Below, piece after piece: positions 6,510 to 62,761 of a stretch of DNA of 64,000 bases. The notes under the pieces are model-generated. The model had not been told where the DNA came from, ran no database searches, and was given only the letters and a program-made list of their open reading frames with translations. The DNA comes from Alphaproteobacteria bacterium (GTDB lineage: Bacteria > Pseudomonadota > Alphaproteobacteria > MPNO01), in NCBI GenBank assembly GCA_965202905.1, contig OZ241868.1, forward strand, positions 516,879 to 580,878, written 5' to 3'. The translations under genes were made by a program, and so were the position numbers. Numbering within the stretch: the stretch's first letter is position 1; every line of letters begins with the position of its first letter.

Positions 6510-6823
6510 GGCGGCCCGGGAAAGTGTGGGTCTCCGACAACCGGGCGTGCGAACTGATCCGCGCGCCGGTGGTCACCGAGAAATCGACGCTGGGCAACGA
6601 GCACAACCAAGTCACCTTCCGGGTGCCGGTCGATGCCACCAAGCCCGAGATCCGGGCCGCAGTCGAAAAGCTGTTCGACGTCAAGGTCAAGGCGGTCAAT
6701 ACCATCCGCCAGAAGGGCAAGATCAAACGGTTCCGCGGCCGTATCGGCAGGCGACCGGACACCAAGAAGGCGATCGTTTCCCTGGCCGAGGGGTCTTCGA
6801 TCGATGTGACGACGGGGATCTAG
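6506..6823 (+). CDS. rplW: 50S ribosomal protein L23
   Basis: [13 protein letters not shown]...[24 protein letters not shown]. Confidence 0.9.
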
Positions 6824-6826
6824 GCC

Positions 6827-7657
6827 ATGGCGCTGAAGCAATACAAACCCGTCACGTCCTCCCAGCGCGGCTTGGTGTTGGTCGACCGGTCCGAGCTGTG
6901 GAAGGGTAAGCCCGTCAAGGCGCTGACCGAGGGCCTGTCGAAAAAGGGCGGGCGTAACAACGCCGGGCGCATCACCGCGCGGCGGCGCGGCGGCGGCCAC
7001 AAGCGGCTCTACCGCAAGATTGACTTCAAGCGGCGCAAGTTCGACGTGCCCGCCCGGGTCGAGCGGCTGGAATACGACCCCAACCGGTCCGCCTTCATCG
7101 CGCTCCTGAAATACGAAGACGGCGAGCAGAGCTACATCATCGCCCCGCAACGGCTCAAGATCGGCGATACGGTTATCGCCGGCGCCTCGGTTGACGTGAA
7201 GCCGGGCAACGCGATGCCGATGGAGAACATCCCTGTCGGTACGATCGTCCACAATATCGAGATGCGGCCGGGCAAGGGTGCCCAGATCGCCCGCGCCGCC
7301 GGCACATATGCCCAGCTTGTCGGCAAGGACTCCGGCTATGCCCAGCTCCGGCTGACCTCGGGCGAGTCCCGCATGGTGCCGGCAGCCTGCATCGCGACCG
7401 TCGGCGCGGTCTCGAACTCCGATAACCAGAACGTCAAGAAGGCCAAGGCCGGACGCAACCGCTGGCTCGGCCATCGCCCCAAGGTGCGTGGCGTGGCCAT
7501 GAACCCGGTCGATCATCCCCACGGCGGCGGCGAGGGCCGGACATCGGGCGGCCGCCATCCGGTCACGCCCTGGGGCGTGCCTACCAAGGGCAAGCGCACA
7601 CGCGGCAAGAAGAAGAGTGATTCGCTCATCATGCGCCGGCGGCACAGGAACAGGTAG
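6827..7657 (+). CDS. rplB: 50S ribosomal protein L2
   Basis: 276 aa; [15 protein letters not shown] motifs. Confidence 0.95.
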
Positions 7658-12514: not shown

Positions 12515-12877
12515 ATGGCAAATACGACCAACCTCAGGTCGGCGCGCCGCGATCGGGTGCGGCGCCGGCTTCGCCGCTGCAATACCGGCCGGCCGCGGCT
12601 GTCGGTGTTCCGCTCGGCAAAGAACATCTATGCTCAGGTGATCGACGATTCCCAGGGCCGGACGCTGGCCGCGGCCTCCAGCATCGAGGCGGAACTGCGG
12701 GAGAGCCTGAAAACCGGCGGCGACAAGGAAGCCGCCGCCCGGGTGGGCAGGCTCCTGGCCGAGCGCGCGCTGGCCAACGGGGTCGAAGAGGTGACGTTCG
12801 ACCGCGGGTCGTACATGTATCACGGCCGGGTGAAGGCCTTGGCCGAGGCCGCCCGCGAAGGCGGGCTGACGTTCTGA
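12515..12877 (+). CDS. rplR: 50S ribosomal protein L18
   Basis: [20 protein letters not shown]. Confidence 0.93.
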
Positions 12878-12887
12878 GGACATAGGT

Positions 12888-13463
12888 ATGGCACGGCGTC
12901 CGAGATCCGATCGCAACCAGCGCTCCGATGATTCGCCCGAGCAGAACGATCTGGTCGACAAGCTGGTCAGCATCAACCGCGTCGCCAAGGTGGTCAAAGG
13001 CGGGCGGCGGTTCGGCTTTGCGGCCCTGGTGGTGGTCGGCGACGCCAAGGGCCGGGTCGGCTACGGCAGTGGCAAGGCGCGCGAGGTGCCCGAGGCCATC
13101 CGCAAGGCGACCGAGCAGGCCAAGCGGTCGATGATCCGCGTGCCGCTGCGCGAAGGGCGCACCCTGCACCACGATATCAACGGCCGGTTCGGCGCCGGGC
13201 GGGTGGTGCTGCGCGCGGCGCCCACCGGCACCGGCATCATCGCCGGCGGACCGATGCGCGCGGTCTTCGAGACGCTGGGCGTGCACGATGTCGTCGCCAA
13301 GTCGATCGGCACGGCCAATCCCTACAACATGGTCAAGGCGACATTCGATGCGCTGTCGCGGCTCAACTCGCCGCGCTCTGTCGCCGCCCGGCGCGGCAGG
13401 AAGGTCAGCGACATCATCGGCCGCCGCCCGGTCGAAGAGCAAAGGGTCCAGGCCGATGGTTAG
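12888..13463 (+). CDS. rpsE: 30S ribosomal protein S5
   Basis: [24 protein letters not shown]. Confidence 0.95.
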
Positions 13464-25365: not shown

Positions 25366-25452
25366 GCGGTCGTGGCGGAATTGGTAGACGCGCAGCGTTG
25401 AGGTCGCTGTGGGAGAAATCCCGTGGAAGTTCGAGTCTTCTCGACCGCACCA
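25366..25452 (+). tRNA. tRNA-Leu (anticodon GAG)
   Basis: GCGGTCGTGGCGGAATTGGTAGACGCG...TCGACCGCACCA; anticodon stem CAGCG/CGCTG, loop TTGAGGT; long variable arm; CCA encoded. Confidence 0.85.
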
Positions 25453-49004: not shown

Positions 49005-49496
49005 TCAGGCCTCGACCTCGAAGATGGCCTCGATTTCCATCGGGAAGCCGCGGGGAAGCTCGGCCATGCCGACGGCGCTGCGCGCGTGTTGGCCGGCTTC
49101 GGGGCCGAACAGCGCAAGGAAGAGGTCCGAGGCGCCGTCGATGACGGCGAACTGGCGCTCGTAGCCCGGCGAGGAATTGACCATGCCGGTGACCTTGACC
49201 ACCTGGACGATCTTGTCCAGCGAGCCGATCTGCTGCTTGACCGAGGCGAGGATATTGAGCGCGACCTTGCGCGCGGTATCGACCGCGTCGGCCTCGGGGA
49301 TTTCGGCATCGACCTTGCCGCGCATTACCGCGTCGGGTTCGGCCGGCGGCGGATGGCCCGAGGTGTAGAGTAGCCGGCCGACCTGGACGCACCCTGTGCG
49401 GTTGGCGCTCGGGTACTTGAAGGGAGCGGGCAGCGCCAAGCCCATCTTGGCCAGGCGCGTTTCGATCCTGCTGGCGGCCGGTTCGGGTCTTCCCAT
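49005..49496 (-). CDS. RidA/YjgF-family protein (enamine/imine deaminase; cf. 2-aminomuconate deaminase)
   Basis: C-terminal RidA core (GFPMEIEAIFEV) with N-terminal extension. Confidence 0.75.
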   Translation of the reverse strand: MGRPEPAASRIETRLAKMGLALPAPFKYPSANRTGCVQVGRLLYTSGHPPPAEPDAVMRGKVDAEIPEADAVDTARKVALNILASVKQQIGSLDKIVQVVKVTGMVNSSPGYERQFAVIDGASDLFLALFGPEAGQHARSAVGMAELPRGFPMEIEAIFEVEA

Positions 49497-49505
49497 CTCG
49501 GGTTC

Positions 49506-51665
49506 TCAGTGTGCCGGCTCGGGGATCGGCGGGTCTGCACCTTCGGGAAGCGGCCGCAGCCGGCAGGGTAGGCCGCGCGTGTCCGCCGAGCCGGTGATCG
49601 GGTCCCACGGCCCTCCATAGGATATGGCCGCGTTGATGTTGACGGTGAGCGCGCCGTGCTCGGGGCCCGGCGCCTCGGGCAGCCACCAGCCCATGCCGGT
49701 GCGCACGACCCCGGGCGCGGTCTCTTCGGTGAGGCTGAGCCGGAGCGCGCACACGCCGTCGCCGGCCGGGGTCTCGACCTCGACCCAGTCATCGGCCGCG
49801 AGCCCCAGCCCGGCGGCGGTTCCGGGATGGATCTGAAGCAGGGGAAAGGGCGAGATTTTGCGCGCCCAAGCCTGATCACGATAGCGCGAATGATGGTAGG
49901 TCTTCTCGCGCGCGCCGGTCAGCAGCACCAGCGGGTAGTCCGCGCGCACCGCCGGGGTCTCGCGCTCGATCCTGGGCGCGATGTGGACCGGCAGCGGCTT
50001 GAGGCCGAGCGCGGCGAGCGTTTCGGAAAAGAGTTCGATCTTGCCGGTGGGTGTGCGGAAGCCAGCGATCTCGAAATCGCCCATCCGAAACGGATAGCGG
50101 GCGTAGCCGGTCCGCTCAAGCTCTTCGAAGGCGATCTCGTTTTCGCCCAGGAGCATCGCGTTGAATTCCCGCTTGCTGCGCCAGGGGATGAACCGGCGCG
50201 CCGCGACGCCGCGGGTCTCCAGCCGGTCGGCGAGGTCGGCGGCGATCTCGAAATCCGAGCGCGCCTGCCCGCGCGGGGCGAGCACGGGCCGGGTGTAGCT
50301 GACGCACGGCGCCGCGGGATCGAGCGAGATCTCTTCTTCCTCCAACCCCGTGGTCTTGGGCAGCACGATGTCGGCGAGCGCGGCCGTCGGCGTCATCGAA
50401 TGGCTCACCGCCACGAAGAAGTCGAGCGAACGCAATGCCGCCAGCGTTTGGCGTGTGTCCGGATAGGTGACCGCGATGTTGACGCCGCTCAGATACATCG
50501 CCCGCACTGGGTAGGGCTCGCCCGTCAGGATCGCCCGGAGAACCGAAGGGTTATGGCAGGCGGTCTGCCAGCCGTCCGGTCCAGCCCAGAGTGGGAAGGC
50601 GTCCGCGCCGATCGTCTTGGCCTCGATGTCGGGCTCCAGCCGGTAGGCCGGGTCATGGAGCAGGTCGATGTAGTTACGGAGGCCCTTGGGCCGCTTGGTC
50701 CGTCGGTTGCCGCCGACGCGATCCAGGTTGCCGGTGATCGCGACCAGGATATGGAACGCGCGAAAGGTCTGGACGCCGTTGGAGAATGCATCGATTCCGT
50801 GTCCGCTGACGAAGGTCGAGGGGCGCGCGGCATAGAGCCGGGCGGCGCGGACGATGCGCTCGGCCGGGACGCCGCTCAGCTGCGCGGCCCAGTCGGGCGT
50901 CAGGGCCGCGACGTGGTCCGCCAGCGCCTCGAAGCCGTGGCACCAACGCGCGGTGAAGTCCCGGTCGTAGAGGTCTTCCGCGACGATCACATGGATCATC
51001 GCCAGCGCGATCGCCGCATCGGCGCCGGGCCTGGGCTGGAGCCACAGATCGGCCATCGCCGCGGCCGGCGTCCGCGCGGGGTCGATGACCACGATCTTCG
51101 CCCCCCTGGCTTTGGCCCGCCTGAGCGCCATCCACTGGGCCGGATCGGCCGCGGACGGATTACGCCCGACGATCAACGCGCAGGCGGTTTCGTCGATGTC
51201 CTCGCCCCCGATGCATGAAAGCCCGGTGATCCTGTCCGACAGCGCCCGGCAGCCGCCGCATAGATCCTGGTTCATCATCCAGTTGGGCGAGCCCAGGGCG
51301 CGCATCAACAGGGCCACCATCGCGCCCCGGCTGAAGAAAGCCGACGAGACCGCTCCCACCAGCGACAGCGGCCCGTGGGTCTGGCGCGTCGCGATCAGCC
51401 CGTCGGCGACCTCATCGAGCGCGGTATCCCAGCCGATCGGCTCCCAGTCGCCGGACCCGCGCGGCCCGCACCGGCGCAGCGGCCGGATCAGCCGGTCGGG
51501 ATGCCCGGTCAGCTCCTTGACGCCGCGGATTCCCTTGACGCAGAAGGCGCCTCTGGAGCCGGGATGGTCGGGGTTGGGGTCGATCCGGGCGATGCGGCCG
51601 TCCTCGACGCTCACCAGCGCGCCGCAGCGGGTGCTGCATTCCCAGCAGGTCGTCGGTACTTGCAT
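49506..51665 (-). CDS. molybdopterin (Mo-bisPGD) oxidoreductase, stand-alone catalytic subunit with N-terminal [4Fe-4S] motif
   Basis: 719 aa from MQVPTTCWECSTRCG...C (C-x2-C-x3-C...C); no Tat signal; trimmed. Confidence 0.8.
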   Translation of the reverse strand: MQVPTTCWECSTRCGALVSVEDGRIARIDPNPDHPGSRGAFCVKGIRGVKELTGHPDRLIRPLRRCGPRGSGDWEPIGWDTALDEVADGLIATRQTHGPLSLVGAVSSAFFSRGAMVALLMRALGSPNWMMNQDLCGGCRALSDRITGLSCIGGEDIDETACALIVGRNPSAADPAQWMALRRAKARGAKIVVIDPARTPAAAMADLWLQPRPGADAAIALAMIHVIVAEDLYDRDFTARWCHGFEALADHVAALTPDWAAQLSGVPAERIVRAARLYAARPSTFVSGHGIDAFSNGVQTFRAFHILVAITGNLDRVGGNRRTKRPKGLRNYIDLLHDPAYRLEPDIEAKTIGADAFPLWAGPDGWQTACHNPSVLRAILTGEPYPVRAMYLSGVNIAVTYPDTRQTLAALRSLDFFVAVSHSMTPTAALADIVLPKTTGLEEEEISLDPAAPCVSYTRPVLAPRGQARSDFEIAADLADRLETRGVAARRFIPWRSKREFNAMLLGENEIAFEELERTGYARYPFRMGDFEIAGFRTPTGKIELFSETLAALGLKPLPVHIAPRIERETPAVRADYPLVLLTGAREKTYHHSRYRDQAWARKISPFPLLQIHPGTAAGLGLAADDWVEVETPAGDGVCALRLSLTEETAPGVVRTGMGWWLPEAPGPEHGALTVNINAAISYGGPWDPITGSADTRGLPCRLRPLPEGADPPIPEPAH

Positions 51666-52214
51666 CGTTCGCTTTCCCCAGCTCCCACGATCTCCCGATC
51701 TTATCATGCAGCGCCTCGCCCGGCATGTCTGCGGGCCAGAAGGCCGGAAAAAGGCACTGTATCATCGCCGGCGCGGGCGATGTCGTTCATGCAGGCCCTG
51801 GCGGGCACGAAAGAGATCCGATCCGTGACGAGGCTCACGACCGCGACGTCCGCCAAACTGCGGCGGGGAGGCTCATGCACCGCGCGGCCTGCCTAAAGGA
51901 AGGGAGTGTCATGACAGACGAGAAGACTTCGATCCCATCGTGCCCACCGCCGGATCTGAACCCCGATCGGCTGCGCTTTTCAGTGCCTCAGGGTGCGTGC
52001 GATGCCCATCTCGATGCCGGTCATGCCGGCGGCGAGCCAGATCGGCACATTGGTCTTGCTGAAGATCACTGTGCCCGCCTTGCGCCAGCGCTCGACGCGC
52101 GCGAGATAGTGCTCCAGGATTTCCACGCAGCCTATCTTGCGGCGGCGGGGCCCGCCAGCCGCTCGGCCGACTGAAACACGATATCGCTCATCCCCGCCCC
52201 GCGCGCTGTCATCT

Positions 52215-53116
52215 GCTGAGGAAATTAGTACTTCGCGGCCGATGCCTTGGGCATCTCGAAGACGCGCTTGACCTCGGGGAGGTTCGCGACCACGGTCTCG
52301 CCCACGGTGAGGAGCCGCTTGCGCATACTCTCGCGCTCTTCCGGCGTCAGGTCGTAGATCCGGCCGCCGTTTTCCTTCCACGCCCCCTCATTCCTGGCGA
52401 GGAATTCCTCTCTGTAGGCGAGTGTCTCCCAATCGGTGTTCTGGCCTTCCTCGATCAGAACCTGACGGATGTCGCCGGGTAGTTTTTTTCATCTTGGCGA
52501 TGGCCTCCACCAGGATCGTCGATTCGTTGGTCCGGGTGAGATTCCTGGTCACCGACCAGTATTTGAAGGTCACGAAGATCGACAGCCTGCTTTTCATGCC
52601 ATCCACCGTGCCGCGCTGCAGGGCCTGGAGCGCTTCCAGCAGCGGGATCGGGGCCGGCGAGGCGCCAAGCCGACGCATGGTCTCGCGTTCGATGTCGCTG
52701 GCGAAAACCCGGATCTTTTTGCCCCCGAAATCGGCCAGACGCTTGATCGGCGCGCGCGAGACGTAATGCGCGAGATCTCCTGCATAGATGCCGATCCCGG
52801 TGATGCTCTTGCGATCGCCCATCGAGAAGAACATCTTTTTGAAGTCCGGGTCGTGCAGCGCGTTCTGGGCATGGCGCAGGTCGTGGAACAGGCCCGGCGC
52901 TGAGGTGACCATGAAGCGCTTGTCGATGCCGACGAAGAAATCCGGCGGAAACAGCGCCATTTCCTGGGTTCCAAGCTGGACGCCTTCGATCTGACGGGGA
53001 ATTCCGCCAAGCTGGCCCGCCGGGAAGACGCAGACATCGACCCGATTGCTGATGCGGCGCTCGACATTCTTCTCGAAGTTGAGCATCCACTGATGCACGG
53101 TGTCCTTGATGGTCAC
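52215..53116 (-). pseudogene. TRAP-transporter DctP-family solute-binding protein, frameshifted and N-terminally truncated
   Basis: DctP-like translation in two frames joined at T7 run 52483..52489; no signal peptide or first ~60 residues; no dctQM nearby. Confidence 0.6.
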
Positions 53117-53137
53117 CGAGCCGATCTTGGAGGGGTG

Positions 53138-54376
53138 ATGGCGGAAATGACGGGCGCGCTGGCGGGCGTGCGGGTGGTCGACCTGACTCGGGTTCTGGCT
53201 GGGCCCTATTGCACCCAGCTTCTGGGCGATCTCGGTGCCGACGTGATCAAGATCGAACGCCCGGGGAGCGGCGACGATACGCGGAAATTCGCGCCGCCCT
53301 TCCTCAAGGACGAAGACGGCAGCGACACCGCCGAGAGCGCCTATTTCATGTCGGCCAACCGCAACAAGCGCTCCGTCGCCCTCGATATCTCAAAGCCGCA
53401 AGGCCAGGATGTCGTGCGCGCGCTAATCCGCAAGGCGGATGCGGTTGTCGAGAATTTCAAGACCGGCAATCTCGCGCGCTACGGCCTCGACTACGACACG
53501 GTGAAGGTGGACAACCCGAAGCTGGTCTACTGTTCGATCACCGGCTTCGGCCAGACTGGGCCCTATGCAAAGCGGCCGGGATACGACTTTCTGATCCAGG
53601 CGATGGGCGGGATCATGTCGCTGACCGGGGAGGTCCAGGGCGAGCCGCAGAAGGTCGGCGTGCCGATCGCCGACATCATGTCGGGCATGTTCGCATCCGT
53701 GGCGGTGAGCGCGGCGCTGCGCCACGCCGCGCTCACCGGCCGGGGTCAGTACATCGACATCGGCATGCTCGACACCCAGGTCGCCTGGCTGGTCAACGCC
53801 GGGATGAATTTCCTGCACGCGGACGATCTCGGCCGGCTGGGCAACGCGCACCCCAACATCGTGCCCTATCAGGTCTTTGCCACCGCCGACGGCCATATTG
53901 TCGTAGCGATCGGCAACGATTCCCAGTTCCGCCGGTTCTGCGACTCGATTGACCGCGCCGATCTCTGCGAAGATGCGCGGTTCGCAACCAACGACGCGCG
54001 GGTGCGCAACCGAGAGAGCTGCATCGCGGCTCTCCGGCCGGTCTTCGAGTTGCGACCGTCGGCCGACTGGCTCGCCGATCTCGAGGCGCAAGGCATCGGC
54101 TGCGGGCCGATCAACAATCTGGCGCAGGTCTTCGAGGACCCGCACGTGCGCGCCCGCGGCATGATCGCCGAGGTGCCGCATCCGGCGATTGACGGCCGGC
54201 CGGCGCGGCTGATCGCGAGCCCCCTACGGCTGTCCGCGACGCCGGTCGAGACCCGCCGCGCCCCGCCGCTCCTGGGACAGCACACCGAAGAAGTGCTGGA
54301 AGAGGTGCTGGGCATGGACGATGCGGCCCGCGCGGGGCTGCGCGAGGCTGGGATCATCGGGCCGGCTCTGTCATAG
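53138..54376 (+). CDS. CaiB/BaiF family (class III) CoA-transferase
   Basis: GVRVVDLTRVLAGPYCTQLLGDLGADVIKIERP... Confidence 0.85.
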   Translation: MAEMTGALAGVRVVDLTRVLAGPYCTQLLGDLGADVIKIERPGSGDDTRKFAPPFLKDEDGSDTAESAYFMSANRNKRSVALDISKPQGQDVVRALIRKADAVVENFKTGNLARYGLDYDTVKVDNPKLVYCSITGFGQTGPYAKRPGYDFLIQAMGGIMSLTGEVQGEPQKVGVPIADIMSGMFASVAVSAALRHAALTGRGQYIDIGMLDTQVAWLVNAGMNFLHADDLGRLGNAHPNIVPYQVFATADGHIVVAIGNDSQFRRFCDSIDRADLCEDARFATNDARVRNRESCIAALRPVFELRPSADWLADLEAQGIGCGPINNLAQVFEDPHVRARGMIAEVPHPAIDGRPARLIASPLRLSATPVETRRAPPLLGQHTEEVLEEVLGMDDAARAGLREAGIIGPALS

Positions 54377-54403
54377 TCGGGCCGGTAATCCGGGGAGGGC
54401 AAG

Positions 54404-55219
54404 ATGACCGAAATCGGCCACATCAATTACGACGAAATTGAGGTCGAAAACTCCGCGACCTATGACAGCCTGAAGGACAGGGTGGTGATCGTCACCGGCG
54501 GCGGCCAGGGTATCGGCCGCGGCTATGCTCACTACTTCGCGGCCCAGGGCGCGATCCCGGTGATCGCCGAGCTCGACGCCGACGCTGGCGAGCGGGTGGC
54601 CGACGAGGTCCGGGCGAAGCAGGGCAAGGCGCTGGCGGTCCAGACCGATGTCGCCGACCTCGATTCGGCGACCAACATGGCCGAGAAGACGCTGGCCGAG
54701 TTCGGCCGCATCGACTGCCTGATCAACAACGCTGCGGTCTTCTCCAGGATCACGATGGCGCCGTTCTGGGAGCTCCCGGTGGACGAGTGGAAGGCGGCGA
54801 TGGACGTCAACATCACCGGATCCTTCTTCTGCGCCCGCGCAGTGGTGCCGGCGATGCAGAAGGCGCGCTGGGGCCGCATCGTCAACGTCTCCTCGGCCAC
54901 CTTCGTGATGGGCCTGCCCAACTACCTCCATTACATCACTTCAAAATCGGCCATGGTCGGCATGACCCGGTCGATGGCGCGCGAGCTCGGCGGGTGGAAC
55001 ATTACCGTCAACACCTTCTGGCCGGGCGTGATGCAGACCGAAATCGAGCGCTCCTCGGTGCCGCGCGAGCGGTTCAAGGAATACACCGACCGCCAGTCGA
55101 TCAAGCGGCAGGGAACGATCCACGACCTCGCCAAGGCGATGCTGTTCCTGTGCTCGGAGGAGGCGAGCTACATATCGGGCCAGAACCTGCAGCCCGACGG
55201 CGGTCTCACGTTCCTCTGA
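54404..55219 (+). CDS. SDR-family oxidoreductase (FabG-like)
   Basis: TGGGQGIGRG, NNAA, Y-x3-K (YITSKSAM). Confidence 0.85.
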   Translation: MTEIGHINYDEIEVENSATYDSLKDRVVIVTGGGQGIGRGYAHYFAAQGAIPVIAELDADAGERVADEVRAKQGKALAVQTDVADLDSATNMAEKTLAEFGRIDCLINNAAVFSRITMAPFWELPVDEWKAAMDVNITGSFFCARAVVPAMQKARWGRIVNVSSATFVMGLPNYLHYITSKSAMVGMTRSMARELGGWNITVNTFWPGVMQTEIERSSVPRERFKEYTDRQSIKRQGTIHDLAKAMLFLCSEEASYISGQNLQPDGGLTFL

Positions 55220-55229
55220 GGGCGCGGCA

Positions 55230-57992
55230 ATGGCGGGGCGCGTCCGCAAGATCGCCGAGAGGCGCAAGGTCCCGGTTTACTGCTATCAATGCGTGGCTGG
55301 GCCCGACCTGATGAAGGTCGAGGTCGAGGACGGCGTCGCCGCGCGGATCGAATCCAACTACGACATCGCGGACCACCATCCGGGCGGCGGCCGGGTGTGC
55401 GTGAAGGCCTACGGGCTGATCCAGAAGACCTACAACCCCAACCGCGTCGCCCGGCCGATGAAGCGGACCAACCCGAAGAAGGGCCGGGACGAGGATCCGG
55501 GGTTCGTGCCGATCTCCTGGGACGAGGCGCTGGACATCGTGGCGGCGAAAATGCGCGAGATCCGCGCCAAAGGGCTGCGCGACGACGAGGGCTATCCCCG
55601 CCTTGCGGCGAGCTTCGGCGGCGGCGGGACGCCGACTCAGTACATGGGGACCTTCCCGGCACTGCTGTCGGCTTGGGGCGCGGTCGATCTCGGCTTCGGC
55701 GGCGGGCAGGGGGTGAAGTGCTATCACTCCGAGCATCTGTATGGCGAGCTGTGGCACCGCGCGTTCATCGTCTCGCCCGATACGCCGTATACCAACTACG
55801 TCATCAACTGCGGCAACAATGTCGAGGCCTCGGGCGGGGTGGCCGGAGTCTGGCGCCAGGCCGATGCGCGGGTGCGCGGCCTCAAGCGGGTTCAGGTCGA
55901 GCCGCATTTGTCGGTCACCGGCGCCGTGTCCGCCGAATGGGTGCCGATCAAGCCCAAGACCGATGCCGCCTTCCTGTTCGGTCTGATCCACCGGATCCTG
56001 ATCGAGCGCAATTGGCGGGAGGTATGCGATGTCCGGTCCATCGCGCACGACACGACCTCGCCCTATCTGATCGGGCCGAACGGCTACTACCTGCGCGATC
56101 CGGAGACCCGCAAGCCGCTGATCTTCGATCTCGCCTGCGGCGGCGCCAGGCCGTTCGATGCCGGGATCGCCGATCCCGCGCTCGACGGCGCCCACCGCGT
56201 TGCCGGAATCGAAATCGGCCCGGACGAGACGGTCTGGCGGCACGATGCGGGTACGGATGCGGCGCCGGCCTTCCGGAAACTGCTCGATCATGTCCGGCCA
56301 TTCACGCCCGAATGGGCCGAGGCGCAGTGCGACGTGCCGGCCGAGCGCATACGCACCATCGCCGACGAATACCTGGCGCATGCCATGATCGGCGAGACCG
56401 TCGAGATCGAGGGCCGGACGCTTCCCTTCCGCCCGGTCGCAGTGATGCTGGGCAAGGGGGTCAATAACGGCTGGGGCGGCTACCAGACCTGTTGGGCGCG
56501 CACGCTGCTGGCCGTCCTGGTCGGCGCGCTGGAAGTCCCGGGCGGCACGCTGGGCACCGCGGTGAAGCTCAACCGGCCCGCCGACAGCCGGCAAAAGACC
56601 GTGCGGTCGGTCGCCGACGGCATCATGGATTATCCCTTCAACCCGACCAGCCGCGAGGAGTGGAACGCCAGGCCGCATATCCGCAACGCCTACAAGACCC
56701 TGGTGCCGCTGGCCGCCGACTCGGCCTGGTCGCCGGCGCTCGGCCCTGCCCATCTGCCCTGGCTGTTCCAGAAAAAGCCGCCCGATCGCTGGCCCACCCA
56801 GACGAAGCCGGAGATGTGGATCAACTACCGCACGAATCCAGCGATCTCCTCGTGGAACGCACCGGAAGTGGCCGAGCGCATCGCCGAGTTTCCGTTTACG
56901 GTCTCTTTCGCCTATACGCGCGATGAGACCAACCATATGGCCGATGTGCTGCTGCCCGAGGCGACCGACCTCGAAAGCCTGCAGCTCATCCAGATCGGCT
57001 CGACCAAGTTCACCGAGCAGTTCTGGAAGCATCAGGGCTGGGCGGTGCGCCAGCCGGTGGCCGATCCGGTGGTCGATACGATGGACATCTCCGACATCGC
57101 CACCGCGCTGGCCGGGCGGGTGGGCCTTCTGGAGGACTACAACGCCGCCATCAACCGGGGCGCGGCGGGCTGCCGGCTGACCGACGATGCCGCCGGCTAC
57201 GACTACGGGCTCGATCCGGCGACCGCCCATGAATCGGAAGAGATCTGGAATGCCGTCGCCAAGGCGGCGAGCCACACGCTGTCCGACGGCGAGGAGGTTC
57301 ACGACATCGCCTGGTTCAAGGAGAACGGCTTCATGCTGCGGCCGTTCCCGCAGCTCGACTGGTATCTCTACCCGACGCTGAAAGATCGGGGCCTGCGCTT
57401 CGAGATGCCCTATCAGGAGCGCCTGATGCGCCGGGGCGCCGAGCTTGCCGAGCGGCTGCACGAGACCGGCGTGAACTGGTGGGACCGCCAGCTCGAGGAA
57501 TACGAGCCGCTGCCGGGCTACAAGCCCTTCCCCGACATCTGGATCAACTACGCCGCGGAGATGGGCCACGATCCGGACGAGTTCCCGCTCTGGGCGCTCA
57601 CCGCGCGCTCGATGCAGTATGCCTGGGGCGCCAATGTCGGCATCCCGCTGATCAACGAGGTAGCCGGGAACATCGCCGGCCACAAGGGTGTGATCGTCAA
57701 CCGCAAGACCGGCCGCGAGATGGGGCTTTCGGACGGCGATCCGATCGTCGTCGAATCGGTGAGCGGGATCACCCGCGGCCGGGCCGTGCTGCGGGAGGGC
57801 ATCCGGCCCGACACGATCCTGATGATCGGCCAATTCGACCACTGGGCGACGCCGTTCGCCAAGGACCTCGGTCTGGCCAGCCTGAACTCGGTGACCTCAC
57901 TGTCGCTCAGCTTGACCGACGCGACGGGAAGCGGCGCCGACCTCGCCCGGGTGCGCATCCGGCGCGATGACGGCAAAGGCCCCCGGCCGTGA
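55230..57992 (+). CDS. molybdopterin (Mo-bisPGD) oxidoreductase catalytic subunit, 920 aa, no Tat signal
   Basis: N-terminal Cys cluster CYQCVAGPD...C; MopB-type domains; C-terminal barrel region. Confidence 0.78.
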   Translation: MAGRVRKIAERRKVPVYCYQCVAGPDLMKVEVEDGVAARIESNYDIADHHPGGGRVCVKAYGLIQKTYNPNRVARPMKRTNPKKGRDEDPGFVPISWDEALDIVAAKMREIRAKGLRDDEGYPRLAASFGGGGTPTQYMGTFPALLSAWGAVDLGFGGGQGVKCYHSEHLYGELWHRAFIVSPDTPYTNYVINCGNNVEASGGVAGVWRQADARVRGLKRVQVEPHLSVTGAVSAEWVPIKPKTDAAFLFGLIHRILIERNWREVCDVRSIAHDTTSPYLIGPNGYYLRDPETRKPLIFDLACGGARPFDAGIADPALDGAHRVAGIEIGPDETVWRHDAGTDAAPAFRKLLDHVRPFTPEWAEAQCDVPAERIRTIADEYLAHAMIGETVEIEGRTLPFRPVAVMLGKGVNNGWGGYQTCWARTLLAVLVGALEVPGGTLGTAVKLNRPADSRQKTVRSVADGIMDYPFNPTSREEWNARPHIRNAYKTLVPLAADSAWSPALGPAHLPWLFQKKPPDRWPTQTKPEMWINYRTNPAISSWNAPEVAERIAEFPFTVSFAYTRDETNHMADVLLPEATDLESLQLIQIGSTKFTEQFWKHQGWAVRQPVADPVVDTMDISDIATALAGRVGLLEDYNAAINRGAAGCRLTDDAAGYDYGLDPATAHESEEIWNAVAKAASHTLSDGEEVHDIAWFKENGFMLRPFPQLDWYLYPTLKDRGLRFEMPYQERLMRRGAELAERLHETGVNWWDRQLEEYEPLPGYKPFPDIWINYAAEMGHDPDEFPLWALTARSMQYAWGANVGIPLINEVAGNIAGHKGVIVNRKTGREMGLSDGDPIVVESVSGITRGRAVLREGIRPDTILMIGQFDHWATPFAKDLGLASLNSVTSLSLSLTDATGSGADLARVRIRRDDGKGPRP

Positions 57993-59626
57993 GCGCCCCG
58001 CGCTGGGGCATGGTCGTCGACCTCAACCGCTGCGTCGGCTGCCAGACCTGCACCATTGCCTGCAAGCACGCCAACGACACACCGCCCGGGGTGCAATGGC
58101 GTCAGGTTCTGGACGTCGAACGCGGCACCTATCCGGATGTGGAGCGCCTGTTCCTGGTGACCGGCTGCCAGCACTGCGCCGAGCCGCCCTGCGTGCCGGT
58201 CTGCCCGACCGGCGCGACCCGCCAGCGCGCCGACGGGCTGGTCACGATGGACTACGAAACCTGCATCGGCTGCGGCTACTGCGCGGTCGCCTGCCCGTAC
58301 CAGGCGCGCACGATCGTCCACGATCGGGAGTGGTATTACGGCGGCGCGCCGACCGCCCAGGAGAGCCACGCCGCGCACGAAGAGCGGATCGGCGTGGCCA
58401 ACAAATGCACGTTCTGCGTCGAGCGGATCGACGAAGCGGCCGATCTTGGCCTCACGCCGGGGATCGATCTCGAATACACGCCCGCCTGCTCGTCGGCCTG
58501 CATCGCCCAGGCGATCCATTTCGGCGATTTCGCCGATCCGTCCAGCAACGTCAGCCGGCTCACTGCCGGGAACGCCAGCTTTCAGATGCACGCCGAACTC
58601 GGTACCGATCCGCAGATCCGCTACCTCTACGAGGTGCCGGAGACCATGCCGGGCCGTTCGGCAGATGCCGGCGACCTCGACGACGCCGCAATGGGCGATC
58701 CGAGGAACCCGCTGGTCGGCCCCCGCCAGACCTTCTGGGATGCCCGCGCGGCGATGAACTTCATCATGGGGGGCATGGCCTCGGGCCTGATGGTCGCGGC
58801 CTGTACCGCTTGGCTTGCCGGAATCGTCGCCGATGTGCCGATGCTTCTGGCCGTCTACGTCGCGGCCGGCGTGTTCATGGCGATCGGCCTGTTCTTCGTC
58901 CTTCTCGAGATCGGGCGGAAGGCGCGCTTCCTCCGTGTCCTGCTACGGCCGCAAAGCTCGTGGATGACGCGGGAGACCTATGCGGTGGCGACGATCTACC
59001 CGGCGCTGCTGCTCGACCTCTTCCTGCCGCACCCGGCACTTCACGCCCTGATCGCCCTCAGCGCGGCGGTCTTCCTGTATTGCCAAGCTAAGATCCTTTA
59101 CGCCGGCAAGGGCATTCCGGCGTGGCGGGCGCCGCTGATCCCGGCAATGCTGGTCGCGACGGGGTTGTTCGAGGGGGTGGGCCTGCTGGCGGCGTTCCTG
59201 GCGGTCATCGGGACGGGCGGATTGCCGGCCGGGTCGGTCGTGCCGGTCGGCATCGCCATCGTCGTCCTTGCCGGGCTCAACGCGGCGCTGTGGCGGCGCT
59301 ATCGCTCGACCGCGGCGTCGGTCGGAATCGGACCGCTCGCTCGCGCCGATCTGGCGGCGGCGAGCCCGTTCGTGATCGGGGTCGGGCACGTTGCACCGAT
59401 CCTCCTTTGCCTTGTGGCGCTCGTCCTGGCCGGGCCGGCGACGGCGTTCTGGCTCGCCGCGGCGGCCGGGGTGACGGCCTTTGCCGGCGGGGCGGTATGG
59501 AAGTTCACTCTCATCACCCGGGCCTGCCATCAGCAGGGGTTCGCCATTCCGGCGATGCCCCGGCGCGGGTCCGGCGCCCGCGCCGCGCCGGCGCGCCTGT
59601 CGCCGACCGCCGCCAAGCTTGTTTAG
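57989..59626 (+). CDS. fusion of a 4x[4Fe-4S] ferredoxin subunit (DmsB-like) and an 8-TM DmsC/NrfD-like membrane anchor
   Basis: four CxxCxxCxxxCP-type clusters in the first ~240 aa, then ~8 hydrophobic helices; ATGA overlap with the catalytic subunit. Confidence 0.78.
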   Translation: MSAPRWGMVVDLNRCVGCQTCTIACKHANDTPPGVQWRQVLDVERGTYPDVERLFLVTGCQHCAEPPCVPVCPTGATRQRADGLVTMDYETCIGCGYCAVACPYQARTIVHDREWYYGGAPTAQESHAAHEERIGVANKCTFCVERIDEAADLGLTPGIDLEYTPACSSACIAQAIHFGDFADPSSNVSRLTAGNASFQMHAELGTDPQIRYLYEVPETMPGRSADAGDLDDAAMGDPRNPLVGPRQTFWDARAAMNFIMGGMASGLMVAACTAWLAGIVADVPMLLAVYVAAGVFMAIGLFFVLLEIGRKARFLRVLLRPQSSWMTRETYAVATIYPALLLDLFLPHPALHALIALSAAVFLYCQAKILYAGKGIPAWRAPLIPAMLVATGLFEGVGLLAAFLAVIGTGGLPAGSVVPVGIAIVVLAGLNAALWRRYRSTAASVGIGPLARADLAAASPFVIGVGHVAPILLCLVALVLAGPATAFWLAAAAGVTAFAGGAVWKFTLITRACHQQGFAIPAMPRRGSGARAAPARLSPTAAKLV

Positions 59627-59733: not shown

Positions 59734-62067
59734 ATGGGCGAGTTCGGGGTTGGGCAATCGGTCCCCAGGCTTGAGGACGAGGCGCTGCTGACCGGGCGGG
59801 GCTTGTTCAGCGACGACGATGGCGGCGCCGGCGTGTTGCGCGGCCATGTGCTCCGCGCGCCGCACGCCCACGCCAGGATCCTGTCGATCGACATTGCGGA
59901 CGCCGCGCGGTTTCCCGGCGTCTCGGCTGTCCTGGTCGGCGCCGACTATCGCGCCGACGGGCTGGGGCCGATCCCCCATATCGGGCCGCCGGTTCGGCGT
60001 CGCGGCGGCGGCGAGATCGACGCGCCGCCCTATTTTCCGCTCGCCGCAGAGCGTGTGCGCCATGTCGGCGAGGGCGTCGCCTTCGTGCTCGCCGACACGC
60101 TGGAGCAGGCGAAGGATGCCGCCGAGCGCGTCGAGGTCGACTACGAGCCGCTGCCGGCGGTCAGCGCGACCGCGGAGGCCCTGGACCCCGGTCGCCCGCT
60201 GGTCTGGCCGGGCAGTCCCGGCAACGAGGTCTTCCTCCACGAGATCGGCGACCGGGCGGCGACCGACGCGGCCTTCGCCAAGGCCGATCGCGCGGTCCGC
60301 CGCAGGCTGGACATCTCGCGGGTGCTGGCCAACGCGATGGAGCCCCGCGGATGCCTGGCGCGCTACGACCCGCGGCGCGGTACCTGCTGGCTGCGGGCGC
60401 CGGTCCAACACCCCTTCGTCGTGCGCGGCGTCCTGGCCCGCCGGATTCTCGGCATCGACGAGCGGCAGGTCCATGTCGAGGTCGACGATGTCGGCGGCAG
60501 CTTCGGGATCAAGGCCAACATCTATCCCGAATACCTGCTGGCGATCTGGGCGGCGCGGCGTCTCGGCCGGGCGGTCAAGTGGACCGGCGAGCGCAGCGAG
60601 GGATTCCTTGCCGACTTCCACGGCCGGGACAATTTGACCGAAGCCGAGCTCGCGCTCGATTCGGCAGGCCGGTTCCTCGGCCTTCGCGTGCGCACGATCG
60701 TCAATATCGGCGCATACCTGTCGCCGCTCGGGGCGGGGCCGGCAGTCAACAATCTCGGGACCCTGGCCGGGGTCTACCGGACGCCCGCGGCGCATGTCGA
60801 GGTGCGCGGCGCCTTGAGCCACACCCAGCCGACGGCACCCTATCGCGGCGCCGGCCGTCCGGAGGCGGCCTATGTCATCGAGCGGCTGATCGATGCGGCG
60901 GCGGCCGAGTTGCAGGTCGATCGGATCGAGCTGCGGCGGCGCAACACGATCGCGCCCGACGAGCTGCCCTTCGCGACGCCCCTGGGCTTCACATACGATT
61001 CCGGCGATTTCGAGGCCAACATGGACCGGGCCCTGGCGGTCGCCGACGCCGAGGGGTTCCAGGCGCGCCGCGAAGGGGCGGCGGAGCGTGGCAAGCTGCG
61101 CGGGCTGGGCCTTGCCAACGCGATCGAACGGGCCGCGCCGCCGGGGCTGGAATATGCCGAGATCCGCTTCGATCCCTCGGGCGCGGCGACCGTGCTCTGC
61201 GGCGCGACATCCCAGGGCCAGGGCCATATGACGACCTTCGCCCAGGTCATCGCAGACCGGCTGGGGCTTCCGGCGGACTCGCTGCGCTTCATCCAGGGCG
61301 ATACCGAGCGGCTCGCCTTCGGGTTCGGCTCCGGCGGCTCGCGGATATCGGCGCTGGGCACGGCGGCGGTGTTGCTCGCCGCCGACAGGATCGTCGCCAA
61401 GGCGCGGATCATCGCCGCCCACGCGCTCGAGGCCGCCGAAGCAGATCTGGAGTTCGCCGATAGCCGGTTCGTGATCGCCGGCACCGACCGGTCGATCACC
61501 TTGACCGATGTCGCAAAGCGGGCCTTCCAGCCGGCCATGCTTCCGCCCGGCGTCGACCCCGGGCTCTACGAAAGCGGCACCTATCGGGCGAGCGTTGCGT
61601 CCTATCCCAATGGCTGCCATGTCTGCGAGGTCGAGATCGACCGGGAGACCGGCGCCGTGGAGATCGTCCGCTACGTTGTGGTCGATGATTTCGGCATCCT
61701 GATCAATCCACTCCTGGTCAAGGGCCAGGTGCATGGCGGGGTCGCCCAAGGCGCCGGTCAGGCGCTCATGGAGGCGATGGTCTTCGACAGCGTCAGCGGC
61801 CAGGTCCTTGCCGGCTCGTTCATGGACTACGCCATGCCGCGCGGTTCCGACCTGTGCGCGATCGAAGTCGAGAGCAATCCGGCGCCCACGGCGACCAACC
61901 CGCTGGGCGTCAAGGGCGCGGGCGAGGCCGGGAATGTCGGGGCGCTGCCTGTGGTCATCAGCGCGGTCGAGGACGCGCTGTCGCCGTTGGGGATCGGCGA
62001 CTTCGCCATGCCGGCGACGCCGGAACGGGTCTGGCGTGCCATCCGGGGCGCCGGCGCTACGTCGTGA
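59734..62067 (+). CDS. xanthine dehydrogenase/CO dehydrogenase-family molybdopterin-binding large subunit (CoxL-like)
   Basis: 777 aa from MGEFGVGQSVPRLEDEALLTGRG (GGGAGG RBS); no CoxM/CoxS genes adjacent; listed ORF trimmed. Confidence 0.8.
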   Translation: MGEFGVGQSVPRLEDEALLTGRGLFSDDDGGAGVLRGHVLRAPHAHARILSIDIADAARFPGVSAVLVGADYRADGLGPIPHIGPPVRRRGGGEIDAPPYFPLAAERVRHVGEGVAFVLADTLEQAKDAAERVEVDYEPLPAVSATAEALDPGRPLVWPGSPGNEVFLHEIGDRAATDAAFAKADRAVRRRLDISRVLANAMEPRGCLARYDPRRGTCWLRAPVQHPFVVRGVLARRILGIDERQVHVEVDDVGGSFGIKANIYPEYLLAIWAARRLGRAVKWTGERSEGFLADFHGRDNLTEAELALDSAGRFLGLRVRTIVNIGAYLSPLGAGPAVNNLGTLAGVYRTPAAHVEVRGALSHTQPTAPYRGAGRPEAAYVIERLIDAAAAELQVDRIELRRRNTIAPDELPFATPLGFTYDSGDFEANMDRALAVADAEGFQARREGAAERGKLRGLGLANAIERAAPPGLEYAEIRFDPSGAATVLCGATSQGQGHMTTFAQVIADRLGLPADSLRFIQGDTERLAFGFGSGGSRISALGTAAVLLAADRIVAKARIIAAHALEAAEADLEFADSRFVIAGTDRSITLTDVAKRAFQPAMLPPGVDPGLYESGTYRASVASYPNGCHVCEVEIDRETGAVEIVRYVVVDDFGILINPLLVKGQVHGGVAQGAGQALMEAMVFDSVSGQVLAGSFMDYAMPRGSDLCAIEVESNPAPTATNPLGVKGAGEAGNVGALPVVISAVEDALSPLGIGDFAMPATPERVWRAIRGAGATS

Positions 62068-62120: not shown

Positions 62121-62194
62121 TGGAGCGGGCAGCGGGAATCGAACCCGCACGAGCAGCTTGGGAAGCTGCCAGGCTACCGTTACATCATGCCCGC
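62121..62194 (-). tRNA. tRNA-Gly (anticodon CCC)
   Basis: minus-strand GCGGGCA...GCAGC-TTCCCAA-GCTGC...GCGGG-TTCGATT-CCCGC-TGCCCGC-T-CCA; D-arm pairing irregular. Confidence 0.7.
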
Positions 62195-62365
62195 GCCGGG
62201 CCGCCATTCTATCGCCCGGGATGGGCATAACAAGCGCCAAGTTTCGCTGGACCCGCCGCGCGGGCGATGTCATTACTGAAGCTGAAGCCGATGAGCGGGC
62301 CCGGTGGAACGGGGTGGAACGCTGCCGATTGGCGGCCGGCCGGTCGGGGGAGGGCGACGCCGGCC

Positions 62366-62761
62366 ATGAAAGCAGCACTGCTCGGACGCTTGGCCAGCGG
62401 TATCGGACAGGGTCGCCACTTCACCCGGCTCGACTGGGCGCGCACCCAGTTCATCGACAAGCTCGGCATCGATCCCTATCCGGGCACCGTCAACATCATC
62501 GTCGACGACCCTGACGCGACGCCGGTCTGGGTGCGGCTCAAGCGCACCGCCGGCGTCCGCATCGAGAACCCCAATGACGGCCCGCACGACTGCGATGCCC
62601 GGTGCTATCGCGTCTCGATCCAGGGCCGGATCGATGCGGCGATCGTGCTGCCCGAGATCGAGGGCTACCCGCCGGCCCAGGTCGAGATGGTCGCTGCGGC
62701 GAACGTCCGCGATGCGCTCGCGATCGAAGACGGCGACCCGGTACGGATCGAGATCCGATGA
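62366..62761 (+). CDS. DUF120 / CTP-dependent riboflavin kinase-like domain protein
   Basis: 131 aa; GRLASGIGQGRHFTRLDWA...GIDPYPGTVNI... resembles archaeal-type RibK. Confidence 0.55.
   Translation: MKAALLGRLASGIGQGRHFTRLDWARTQFIDKLGIDPYPGTVNIIVDDPDATPVWVRLKRTAGVRIENPNDGPHDCDARCYRVSIQGRIDAAIVLPEIEGYPPAQVEMVAAANVRDALAIEDGDPVRIEIR

Follow-up and report, generated by a model that had tools for sequence, protein, structure and literature searches.

In the 64,000-nucleotide stretch of alphaproteobacterial DNA analysed here (the window; positions 516,879 to 580,878 of contig OZ241868.1, assembly GCA_965202905.1), four plus-strand genes between positions 53093 and 59626 encode a CoA-transferase, a short-chain dehydrogenase/reductase (SDR), a 920-residue catalytic subunit of the molybdenum bis(pyranopterin guanine dinucleotide) (Mo-bisPGD) type, and a 545-residue protein in which an iron-sulfur (FeS) domain is joined to a membrane anchor. 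We propose, with a probability of roughly 0.75, that these genes represent a PadBCD-type acyl-CoA:quinone oxidoreductase module together with substrate-handling enzymes, PadBCD being, as judged by homology, the closest characterised system. PadBCD is the phenylacetyl-CoA:acceptor (quinone) oxidoreductase (EC 1.17.5.1) of Thauera aromatica, Aromatoleum evansii and A. aromaticum EbN1, and is seen as a specialised reaction by which denitrifiers break down phenylalanine and phenylacetate anaerobically; to our knowledge, biochemical characterisation has been achieved for a single enzyme of this type. As Rhee and Fuchs are said to have described in 1999, the enzyme of T. aromatica resides in the membrane and has three subunits, of about 93, 27 and 26 kDa, and by the same account and the entry for EC 1.17.5.1 it reportedly uses water as oxygen donor and reduces quinones, the reaction being a four-electron oxidation of phenylacetyl-CoA to phenylglyoxylyl-CoA. 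By analogy, the function of the module in the window would most likely be the water-dependent α-oxidation of an acyl-CoA, with transfer of the electrons to quinone. What is new is a large clade in which the FeS and anchor subunits are fused, and which is undescribed and uncharacterised in the literature searched; the enzyme type itself, and the combination of an NrfD-type anchor with a catalytic subunit devoid of a twin-arginine translocation (Tat) signal, are already known.

The catalytic subunit and the fused FeS-anchor protein

Open reading frames (ORFs) in the window, which has a G+C content of ~66%, were judged by the codon-position G+C pattern typical of real genes. The four genes lie head to tail, separated by gaps of 27 and 10 nucleotides and, finally, by a 4-nucleotide GTGA start/stop overlap: a family III (CaiB/BaiF-type) CoA-transferase at 53093-54376 (427 residues; Pfam PF02515 CoA_transf_3, E 1e-133), a classical SDR oxidoreductase at 54404-55219 (271 residues; PF13561 (adh_short_C2)/PF00106 (adh_short)), the catalytic subunit at 55230-57992 (920 residues; PF00384 Molybdopterin and PF01568 Molydop_binding) and the FeS-anchor protein at 57989-59626 (545 residues; 4Fe-4S dicluster Pfam families in the N-terminal 215 residues). 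An alternative ATG start of the CoA-transferase at 53138, yielding 412 residues, is the one from which a previous reading of the DNA letters alone (the sequence-only reading) had started the unit, and the composition which that reading had assigned to the unit is borne out by the Pfam matches.

The 920-residue protein is, by sequence, a close homologue of PadB. When it was searched against 1.84 billion representatives clustered at 50% identity, the best match by a wide margin was the representative P0241 (59% identity, 917 residues), a Thauera protein that carries the JGI name phenylacetyl-CoA:acceptor oxidoreductase, as do several other members of its largely Thauera cluster, and the next full-length relatives followed at 49%, 46%, 45%, 42% identity and lower. 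At a Thauera padBCD locus (L082), genes for XdhC, a MobA-like protein and FdhD precede those for a 917-residue Mo subunit, a 215-residue FeS subunit and a 301-residue membrane subunit, and a gene for a PaaX-family regulator is divergently oriented; the catalytic subunit of the window is 58% identical to the 917-residue Mo subunit over 908 residues. Since the SDR gene stops 10 nucleotides upstream and a cysteine motif starts at residue 18, the catalytic ORF cannot be extended and leaves no room for a Tat signal, in agreement with the sequence-only reading.

The N-terminal cluster motif reads C18-x2-C21...C57, the usual third cysteine being replaced by a conserved G-P-D, as is likewise the case in Thauera PadB, while relatives of ~35% identity retain the canonical CxxCxxxC. 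The motif of the whole PadB clade comprises three cysteines (window 55281-55400, residues 18-57; the same holds for L082), which raises the question of whether a [3Fe-4S] or an Asp-ligated [4Fe-4S] cluster is bound. C18, C21, C57 and C164 are invariant across 120 homologues. Cys164, located within the invariant stretch GVKCYHSEH, is the predicted Mo ligand: it aligns with the cysteine of the ‘slC’ stretch in PsrA (2vpw_A), which we take to be the Mo ligand Cys173.

The sequence-only reading had pointed to the clades of pyrogallol transhydroxylase, ethylbenzene dehydrogenase and resorcinol hydroxylase, and had not named PadBCD. We rejected these three on sequence grounds after comparison with NCBIfam and the PDB. 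Of the solved catalytic subunits, ArrA comes closest with 101 bits, followed by PsrA with 82 bits; the α subunit of ethylbenzene dehydrogenase (2ivf_A) matches at E 9.4e-7, the EbdA model of NCBIfam scores 27 bits against a cut-off of 2000 bits, and no entry named pyrogallol transhydroxylase is present among the 15 PDB matches at E <= 0.001. Scores for the PhsA (147 bits versus a 694-bit cut-off) and dmsA_ynfE models (99 versus 778 bits) likewise fall far short.

The 545-residue protein is PadC joined to PadD through an acidic linker, because its two parts match the separate FeS and membrane proteins of Thauera. Residues 5-215 are 59% identical to the 215-residue FeS protein and residues 235-540 are 36% identical to the 301-residue membrane protein; the anchor domain is also 37% identical to PadD of A. 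evansii (Q8L3B4). The PadC-like ferredoxin domain (residues 1-215; 57989-58633) contains four [4Fe-4S] cluster motifs, the 16 cysteines of which form four CxxCxxCxxxC-type groups that are invariant in 54 homologues, and its nearest NCBIfam models are DsrO, QrcC, ArrB, NrfC, TtrB and DmsB. The first of these groups begins at residue 15, so that no room is left for a signal peptide. The linker of ~25-30 residues (about residues 216-245; 58634-58723) falls between the ends of the PadC and PadD alignments, and the 27-residue stretch that overlaps it ahead of the first transmembrane helix (residues 225-251) has family means of 7.4 D+E and 1.9 K+R. The PadD-like anchor domain (residues ~246-545; 58724-59626), which has an NrfD/PsrC fold and a presumed quinone site, completes the protein.

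The fusion is genuine and not a frameshift artefact, a point on which the sequence-only reading had asked for caution, because it is found in many homologues and is contained in one reading frame at 70 of 80 loci. A search against 5.8 billion protein clusters yielded 1546 homologues of the 545-residue protein, the best 120 of which are 522-606 residues long and 61-84% identical to it, one identical database copy aside; all but one of these 120 cover 96-100% of the query. The 70 loci, each from a different genome, show a single-frame tblastn match across both domains after the catalytic gene. At nine of the ten remaining loci the contig ends within about 1 kb of the catalytic gene, and at the tenth (L064) a gene of the xanthine dehydrogenase (XDH) family takes the place of the fused gene.

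An AlphaFold2 model of the membrane domain exhibits eight transmembrane helices, mostly with a predicted local distance difference test (pLDDT) score above 90, in line with the NrfD/PsrC/DmsC family, whose members are characterised by eight helices arranged as two four-helix bundles, carry no redox cofactors and dock a four-cluster FeS protein. The top Foldseek match is PsrC (2vpw_C; E 8.9e-6, TM-score 0.67 on the target, 22% identity), and ActC and ActF of alternative complex III rank within the top seven. A family profile of the domain finds PsrC as its sole PDB sequence match (E 6.6e-4). With Pfam NrfD (PF03916), the domain of the window (residues 245-545) scores 18.6-18.8 bits, under the gathering score of 25.8 bits. 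Among 18 family members, 17 are recognised by the same model at E <= 0.01 (best 1.3e-9) and 11 by DmsC (PF04976). The earlier description of the protein as a four-cluster ferredoxin followed by a DmsC/PsrC-like anchor of about eight helices is confirmed.

For the orientation of the anchor, lysine and arginine residues were counted in loops and tails, with helix boundaries taken from the AlphaFold2 model and averages taken over the family. The FeS-domain side carries 14.3 K+R and the opposite side 0.2, and the positive-inside rule consequently predicts a cytoplasmic location for the FeS domain as well as for the two ends of the anchor. By this charge distribution, the catalytic subunit is placed at the cytoplasmic face together with the FeS domain. 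In PsrC, both termini and the quinone site are located on the P-side (PMC8076601), and SoeC is the one NrfD-family member that, according to a review of NrfD, is expected to be inverted (PMC8076601). With its FeS side predicted to be cytoplasmic, the anchor of the window protein is oriented in the opposite sense to PsrC: its position towards the FeS partner is kept, and the module as a whole is turned over in the membrane.

Distribution and gene contexts

One genome per species was scanned for relatives of the catalytic subunit, and 80 loci (labelled L001 and so forth) were fetched. At least 595 species-level genomes encode such a relative. Metagenome-assembled genomes account for 76 of the 80 listed loci and carry labels of Alpha-, Beta- or Gammaproteobacteria or of taxa within these classes, the closest being those of an uncultured alphaproteobacterium and of a Defluviicoccus metagenome-assembled genome (84-85% identity). 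A tblastn search of a plasmid collection returned nothing closer than 29% identity, and the family is thus not plasmid-borne in that collection. When relatives of the Thauera membrane protein were collected, almost all of the best 120 proved to be separate proteins, about 300 residues long (range 294-346); they include UniRef Q8L3B4 from A. evansii as well as proteins named ‘26-kDa subunit’ and ‘subunit 2’ by JGI, and all those from named organisms belong to Rhodocyclales (Aromatoleum, Azoarcus, Thauera and Sulfuritalea). In A. aromaticum, padC and padD are the separate genes EbA5395 and EbA5396 (PMC5109826). The sequence-only reading had considered the fusion of the two subunits unusual. It is, however, how these subunits regularly occur throughout a large clade of proteobacterial proteins, the members of which are already labelled as Pad subunits by annotation pipelines, and it is not peculiar to the source genome. 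Our literature searches retrieved genome papers in which padBCD is only listed, and none that describes a fused PadCD or this clade.

For the gene contexts, neighbours within 6 kb of the catalytic gene were counted at those 67 loci for which 2.5 kb or more of upstream sequence was available, ORFs being clustered and representatives annotated. An AMP-forming acyl-CoA ligase is encoded at 25 of the 67 loci and a ~136-residue FlK-type hotdog thioesterase (PF22636, E 2.4e-30) at 23; where present, the thioesterase gene usually stands just before the catalytic gene, and the ligase gene often precedes that of the thioesterase. PaaK-like ligases and CaiB-type CoA-transferases are encoded at five loci each, and an IorAB-like 2-oxoacid:ferredoxin oxidoreductase at four. 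The CoA-transferase never occurs together with the ligase or the thioesterase. By analogy, the ligase/thioesterase contexts appear to reproduce the logic of the Pad pathway, that is, activation, α-oxidation, thioester hydrolysis and oxidative decarboxylation of the 2-oxoacid. The varied gene contexts of the fused clade imply several substrates.

Apart from the window itself, the order CoA-transferase, SDR, PadB, PadCD occurs only in the closest relatives, L001, L002 and L008, in which the CoA-transferase orthologues (74-79% identity) occupy the same position and the genes for the SDR orthologues (83-92% identity) immediately precede the Mo gene. SDR orthologues of 72% identity hold this position next to the Mo gene in L005 and L010. 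A LysR regulator gene heads the unit in L001 and L002, and none was identified in L008. The pairing of CoA-transferase and SDR in this sub-clade suggests a distinct acid. The best NCBIfam model for the CoA-transferase is succinate-glutarate CoA-transferase (475 bits versus a 750-bit cut-off) and the nearest solved structures are 4ed9 and SUGCT (9br7), so that its nearest characterised relatives, as identified by sequence, act on dicarboxylates. For the SDR, no close relative is informative: it reaches no equivalog cut-off of NCBIfam and passes only the broad ‘glucose 1-dehydrogenase’ subfamily model (219.8 versus 215 bits), and among solved structures it comes nearest to FabG-like enzymes, a (3R)-hydroxyacyl-CoA dehydrogenase and (S)-1-phenylethanol dehydrogenase.

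Two further features of the neighbourhoods were observed. Large subunits of the XDH family recur near the Mo/FeS-anchor pair (L017, L044, L046, L060, L064 and L073), and in L017, L044 and L046 the pair is followed downstream by genes for a PaaK-like ligase, a 2Fe-2S subunit, a Mo subunit and then a ~330-residue protein, a gene set which presumably resembles that for enzymes of anaerobic 4-hydroxyphenylacetate degradation, including 4-hydroxybenzoyl-CoA reductase. At six marine Rhodospirillales-type loci (L022, L025, L031, L033, L038 and L048), the PadCD-like gene is immediately followed by selB and selA, which are encoded on the other strand (at about 12.4-15.9 kb in L022, L031 and L033). A selenocysteine ligand at these loci was set aside, since five of the six (L022, L031, L033, L038 and L048) have a catalytic ORF of full length without interruption, that of L025 having been miscalled by the ORF picker.

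In the window, the four-gene unit is followed after 107 nucleotides by a gene for an XDH-family Mo (MoCoBD) large subunit (59734-62067, plus strand; PF01315, PF02738, PF20256), with GGGAGG preceding its ATG at 59734. It is the large subunit gene only that is found here; the protein matches CO-dehydrogenase-like and glyceraldehyde-dehydrogenase-like NCBIfam models, all below cut-off, and the gene could be transcribed either with the four-gene unit or separately. A promoter/terminator scan of 52.3-64 kb gave matches at or below chance expectation and yielded no operon boundaries. Upstream, on the minus strand, lies a remnant of a gene for a TRAP-type DctP solute-binding protein (52388-53116). 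It covers only Pfam DctP profile positions 8-204 of 286, cannot be extended to a signal peptide, and abuts or overlaps the start of the CoA-transferase gene with its 5' end; it is regarded as a remnant because the C-terminal part of DctP, which was sought in the next ORF, was not found there. This arrangement suggests that the operon was placed beside, or into, an older transporter locus. The ~680 nucleotides beyond the remnant (51707-52388) hold no convincing gene.

Further upstream on the minus strand, a second, cytoplasmic Mo-bisPGD enzyme of 733 residues is encoded at 49506-51707, followed by a YjgF/RidA-family gene at 49005-49496. This second enzyme possesses a canonical N-terminal Fe4S4 domain, has neither a signal peptide nor an adjoining gene for an FeS partner, and reaches no NCBIfam cut-off (best PhsA, 265 bits, and Fdh-alpha, 258 bits). 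It may be functionally linked to the operon, because a 73%-identical copy adjoins the CoA-transferase/SDR/PadB/PadCD unit in L008. Beyond it, there are genes for two class II aldolase-like proteins, shikimate dehydrogenase and a LigXa-like Rieske oxygenase, and the region 28.6-43.9 kb contains genes for a ring-hydroxylating dioxygenase system, bicupin, glutathione S-transferase (GST) and FAH proteins as well as DmpFG-like meta-cleavage genes. The setting of the operon is, by gene annotation, an aromatic-acid catabolic region.

On a larger scale, a block of ~36.7 kb is bracketed by tRNA-Leu(gag) (25366-25452, plus strand) and tRNA-Gly(ccc) (62121-62194, minus strand), the latter downstream of the XDH-family gene. 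Genes of aromatic and organic-acid catabolism dominate this block from ~28.6 kb onward, the PadBCD-like operon included; they encode Rieske dioxygenase components, ferredoxin reductase, bicupin, GST, several FAH-family proteins, a DmpFG-like aldolase/dehydrogenase pair, aldehyde dehydrogenase and the LigXa-like oxygenase. In the middle of the catabolic genes, an ORF for a DEAD/DEAH-box helicase (35710-38304, plus strand; 864 residues) coincides with a stretch of G+C 0.59-0.62, compared with about 0.66 elsewhere, possibly of foreign or mobile origin. The tRNA-Gly gene is closely followed by an ORF of the CTP-dependent riboflavin kinase/DUF120 family (62267-62761, plus strand; 164 residues; PF01982, E 4.6e-29), a family that is mostly archaeal.

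Proposed function and alternative readings

The sequence-only reading had suggested that a CoA-activated acid is oxidised or hydroxylated with electrons feeding the quinone pool, and this is supported by PadBCD, the closest characterised homologue, which does so. Modelled on the PadBCD reaction, the module could operate as follows: (i) a carboxylic acid would be activated as a CoA thioester, a task that would fall to the family III CoA-transferase in this case; (ii) the Mo-bisPGD centre, with Cys164 as ligand, would oxidise the methylene group beside the thioester carbonyl, with water as oxygen donor; (iii) the electrons would be passed to a quinone site of the anchor, which is presumed to be on the cytoplasmic side because the anchor is inverted relative to PsrC; and (iv) the quinol would deliver them to the respiratory chain. 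More speculatively, the SDR might interconvert 2-hydroxy- and 2-oxo-acyl-CoA intermediates, and the CoA-transferase might move CoA from the product to fresh substrate, thereby standing in for two enzymes encoded beside the pair in many other genomes, the ATP-consuming ligase and the FlK-type thioesterase; these roles are conjectured from the gene order of the sub-clade and from the fact that the transferase co-occurs with neither ligase nor thioesterase. Phenylacetyl-CoA is not assumed to be the substrate, because the gene context differs from that of the pad cluster.

A wider proposal, which we hold to be doubtful, is that the fused clade constitutes a family of oxygen-independent, quinone-linked α-oxidases for acyl-CoAs other than phenylacetyl-CoA, and that in the sub-clade of the window a dicarboxylate-type CoA-transferase and the SDR form an ATP-free cycle. 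In such a cycle, an acid would be converted to its acyl-CoA and further to the 2-hydroxy- and 2-oxo-acyl-CoA, and CoA would be transferred to fresh substrate as the 2-oxoacid leaves; the conversion of glutarate to 2-oxoglutarate may serve as an example.

Several points weigh against the assignment of the four genes to a PadBCD-type module with substrate-handling enzymes. With only three cysteines in the N-terminal motif, the type of cluster in the catalytic subunit is uncertain, and the FeS domain of the fused protein is modelled by AlphaFold2 with low confidence (pLDDT below 50), so that domain docking is not inferred. The Thauera reference locus stems from a metagenome-assembled genome and not from the strain of the purified enzyme, and it lacks padEFGHI and padJ within 10 kb. 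The context counts are approximate, as the gene calls were made with a crude ORF picker, and 25 of the 67 loci are devoid of any CoA-activating enzyme or thioesterase within 6 kb, the pair often standing alone; context consequently defines function only so far. Finally, the roles proposed for the SDR and the CoA-transferase are derived solely from gene adjacency.

Four alternatives were weighed against this assignment. The enzyme could be a true phenylacetyl-CoA dehydrogenase, acting on the substrate of Thauera and Aromatoleum and differing only by the PadC-PadD fusion, and the 58% identity of the catalytic subunit to the Thauera PadB homologue, the KEGG-based JGI names of clade members (phenylacetyl-CoA:acceptor oxidoreductase), the PaaK-type phenylacetate-CoA ligase genes adjoining some of these members and the wealth of aromatic-catabolism genes in the window region can all be cited in its favour. 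Substrate specificity is, however, not secure at 58% identity, and no padJ/paaK ligase, padEFGHI or IorAB, or PaaX gene is present among the window ORFs scanned (18.7-64 kb). Moreover, activation would have to be accomplished by a CaiB-type transferase related to dicarboxylate enzymes, and an SDR foreign to the pad pathway is conserved in the operon. We thus consider phenylacetyl-CoA an unlikely, albeit serious, candidate for the substrate. A cytoplasm-facing oxidoreductase of an inorganic substrate such as sulfite, with the CoA-transferase and SDR as unrelated neighbours, appears quite improbable. The model for such an enzyme is SoeABC, in which a Mo-bisPGD subunit without Tat signal and a four-cluster FeS subunit face the cytoplasm and are combined with an NrfD-like anchor of inverted orientation that has its quinone site near the N-side (PMC8076601). 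The overall build is the same, a TauE/SafE-family exporter gene is located near the operon in L008, and many clade members stand alone, without CoA-related neighbours; yet none of the 240 listed clade proteins is named Soe, PadB or PadC being the names given instead, the closest named relatives are the Pad proteins of Rhodocyclales beside a PaaX regulator gene, and genes for a ligase and an FlK-type thioesterase are the commonest immediate neighbours.

The remaining two alternatives can be dealt with more briefly. For a periplasmic respiratory reductase of the DmsABC, PsrABC or PhsABC type one may invoke that the best NCBIfam and PDB matches are, by name, PhsA, ArrA and PsrA, all far below family cut-offs, and that an export signal might have been overlooked, a concern which the sequence-only reading had itself raised along with orthology to DmsABC. 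Neither a Tat motif nor such orthology was detected in the ORF starts, NCBIfam or the PDB: both proteins lack room for a signal peptide, the PhsA score of the catalytic subunit is far from the cut-off of that model, the charge distribution of the anchor is opposite to that required, and RRxF Tat motifs are present only in more distant relatives, 39-42% identical. A periplasmic location is thus very hard to sustain. It is less credible still that the 545-residue protein originates from an assembly or frameshift error in two adjacent genes. A single indel could indeed fuse genes that abut, as those for the FeS and membrane subunits do at the Thauera locus (12751-13398 and 13398-14303 in L082). 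The fused architecture recurs, however, among the 1546 homologues in independent assemblies and in one frame at the 70 loci, and residues in and around the linker are conserved (for example P241, G244, Q247, W250 and D251), as are many invariant residues of the membrane domain in 54 homologues.

The assignment to the PadBCD type, if correct, is of importance beyond the window. While PadBCD has been known as a specialised enzyme of denitrifiers, it is shown here to possess a much larger sister clade, with a catalytic-subunit relative in at least 595 species-level genomes and 1546 homologues of the fused protein, the contexts of which vary from ligase and FlK-type thioesterase to PaaK and XDH-family genes, IorAB, or CoA-transferase and SDR. 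If it is true that this clade oxidises a range of acyl-CoAs with water and quinone, an under-appreciated oxygen-independent route of α-oxidation would exist in Proteobacteria that are known largely from metagenome-assembled genomes. The single-polypeptide FeS-anchor protein, being a fixed 1:1 construct, also provides a handy object for studying how an inverted NrfD-type anchor couples a cytoplasmic redox module to quinone.

Comparison with known systems

Among the polysulfide (PsrABC) and thiosulfate (PhsABC) reductases, the solved Psr complex (2vpw) served for comparison. PsrC is closest to the membrane domain of the window, PsrA is among the two closest to the catalytic subunit, with its ‘slC’ cysteine aligning with Cys164, and the FeS subunit is likewise of the four-cluster type. 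The similarity is low, as is evident from the 82 bits obtained with PsrA and the 22% identity to PsrC in the structural alignment, and Psr differs in that it faces the periplasm (PMC8076601), is exported by Tat, operates in the reductive direction on inorganic substrates and is made up of separate subunits. Lacking a Tat signal and scoring far below the family cut-offs, the window module does not belong to the DmsABC/PsrABC/PhsABC group.

SoeABC, the cytoplasmic sulfite:quinone oxidoreductase, shares its overall build with the window module but comprises three separate subunits and acts on an inorganic substrate; this comparison was made by description and database names only. SoeABC also bears on the view of the sequence-only reading that a Tat-less catalytic subunit combined with an NrfD-type anchor is unusual. 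The combination is uncommon, as had been stated, but it has precedents in SoeABC (PMC8076601) and at the Thauera padBCD locus.

More distant PadB-like enzymes from Thermodesulfobacteriota and Syntrophales (45-49% identity) also consist of a Tat-less Mo subunit, the gene for which is followed by that for a four-cluster FeS protein, and AMP-ligase or UbiD genes are located nearby. In L084, the FeS (230 residues) and NrfD (320 residues) subunits are separate, and an AMP-ligase gene adjoins. In L085, from Syntrophales (catalytic subunit 49% identical), the gene for the FeS subunit is followed by one for a pyridine-nucleotide-disulfide oxidoreductase instead of an anchor (5694-7647), and a UbiD-family gene lies upstream; this suggests a soluble, NAD(P)- or ferredoxin-linked version of the enzyme.

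It is with PadBCD that the agreement is most extensive. The genes padBCD encode phenylacetyl-CoA:acceptor oxidoreductase (PMC4453571), the phenylglyoxylyl-CoA product of which is hydrolysed to phenylglyoxylate (PMC9765128). All three parts of PadBCD are homologous to the window proteins, and the Thauera PadB homologue aligns with the catalytic subunit from residue 10 without an N-terminal extension. Shared features are (i) the absence of a Tat signal, (ii) the N-terminal motif CxxC-VAGPD and the VKC-HSEH stretch with the putative Mo-ligand cysteine, (iii) a DmsC/NrfD-like anchor, for which the cytoplasmic orientation predicted for the window protein fits the need for a CoA-thioester substrate, and (iv) the substrate class, which for the window enzyme we infer to be acyl-CoA. 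The differences are that PadC and PadD form one polypeptide of 545 residues in the window, whereas they are encoded by separate genes in Thauera and A. aromaticum, and that a CoA-transferase and an SDR take the place of PadJ ligase, the phenylglyoxylate oxidoreductase PadEFGHI and the PaaX regulator. Hence, the present findings do not overturn current understanding but extend a known enzyme type.

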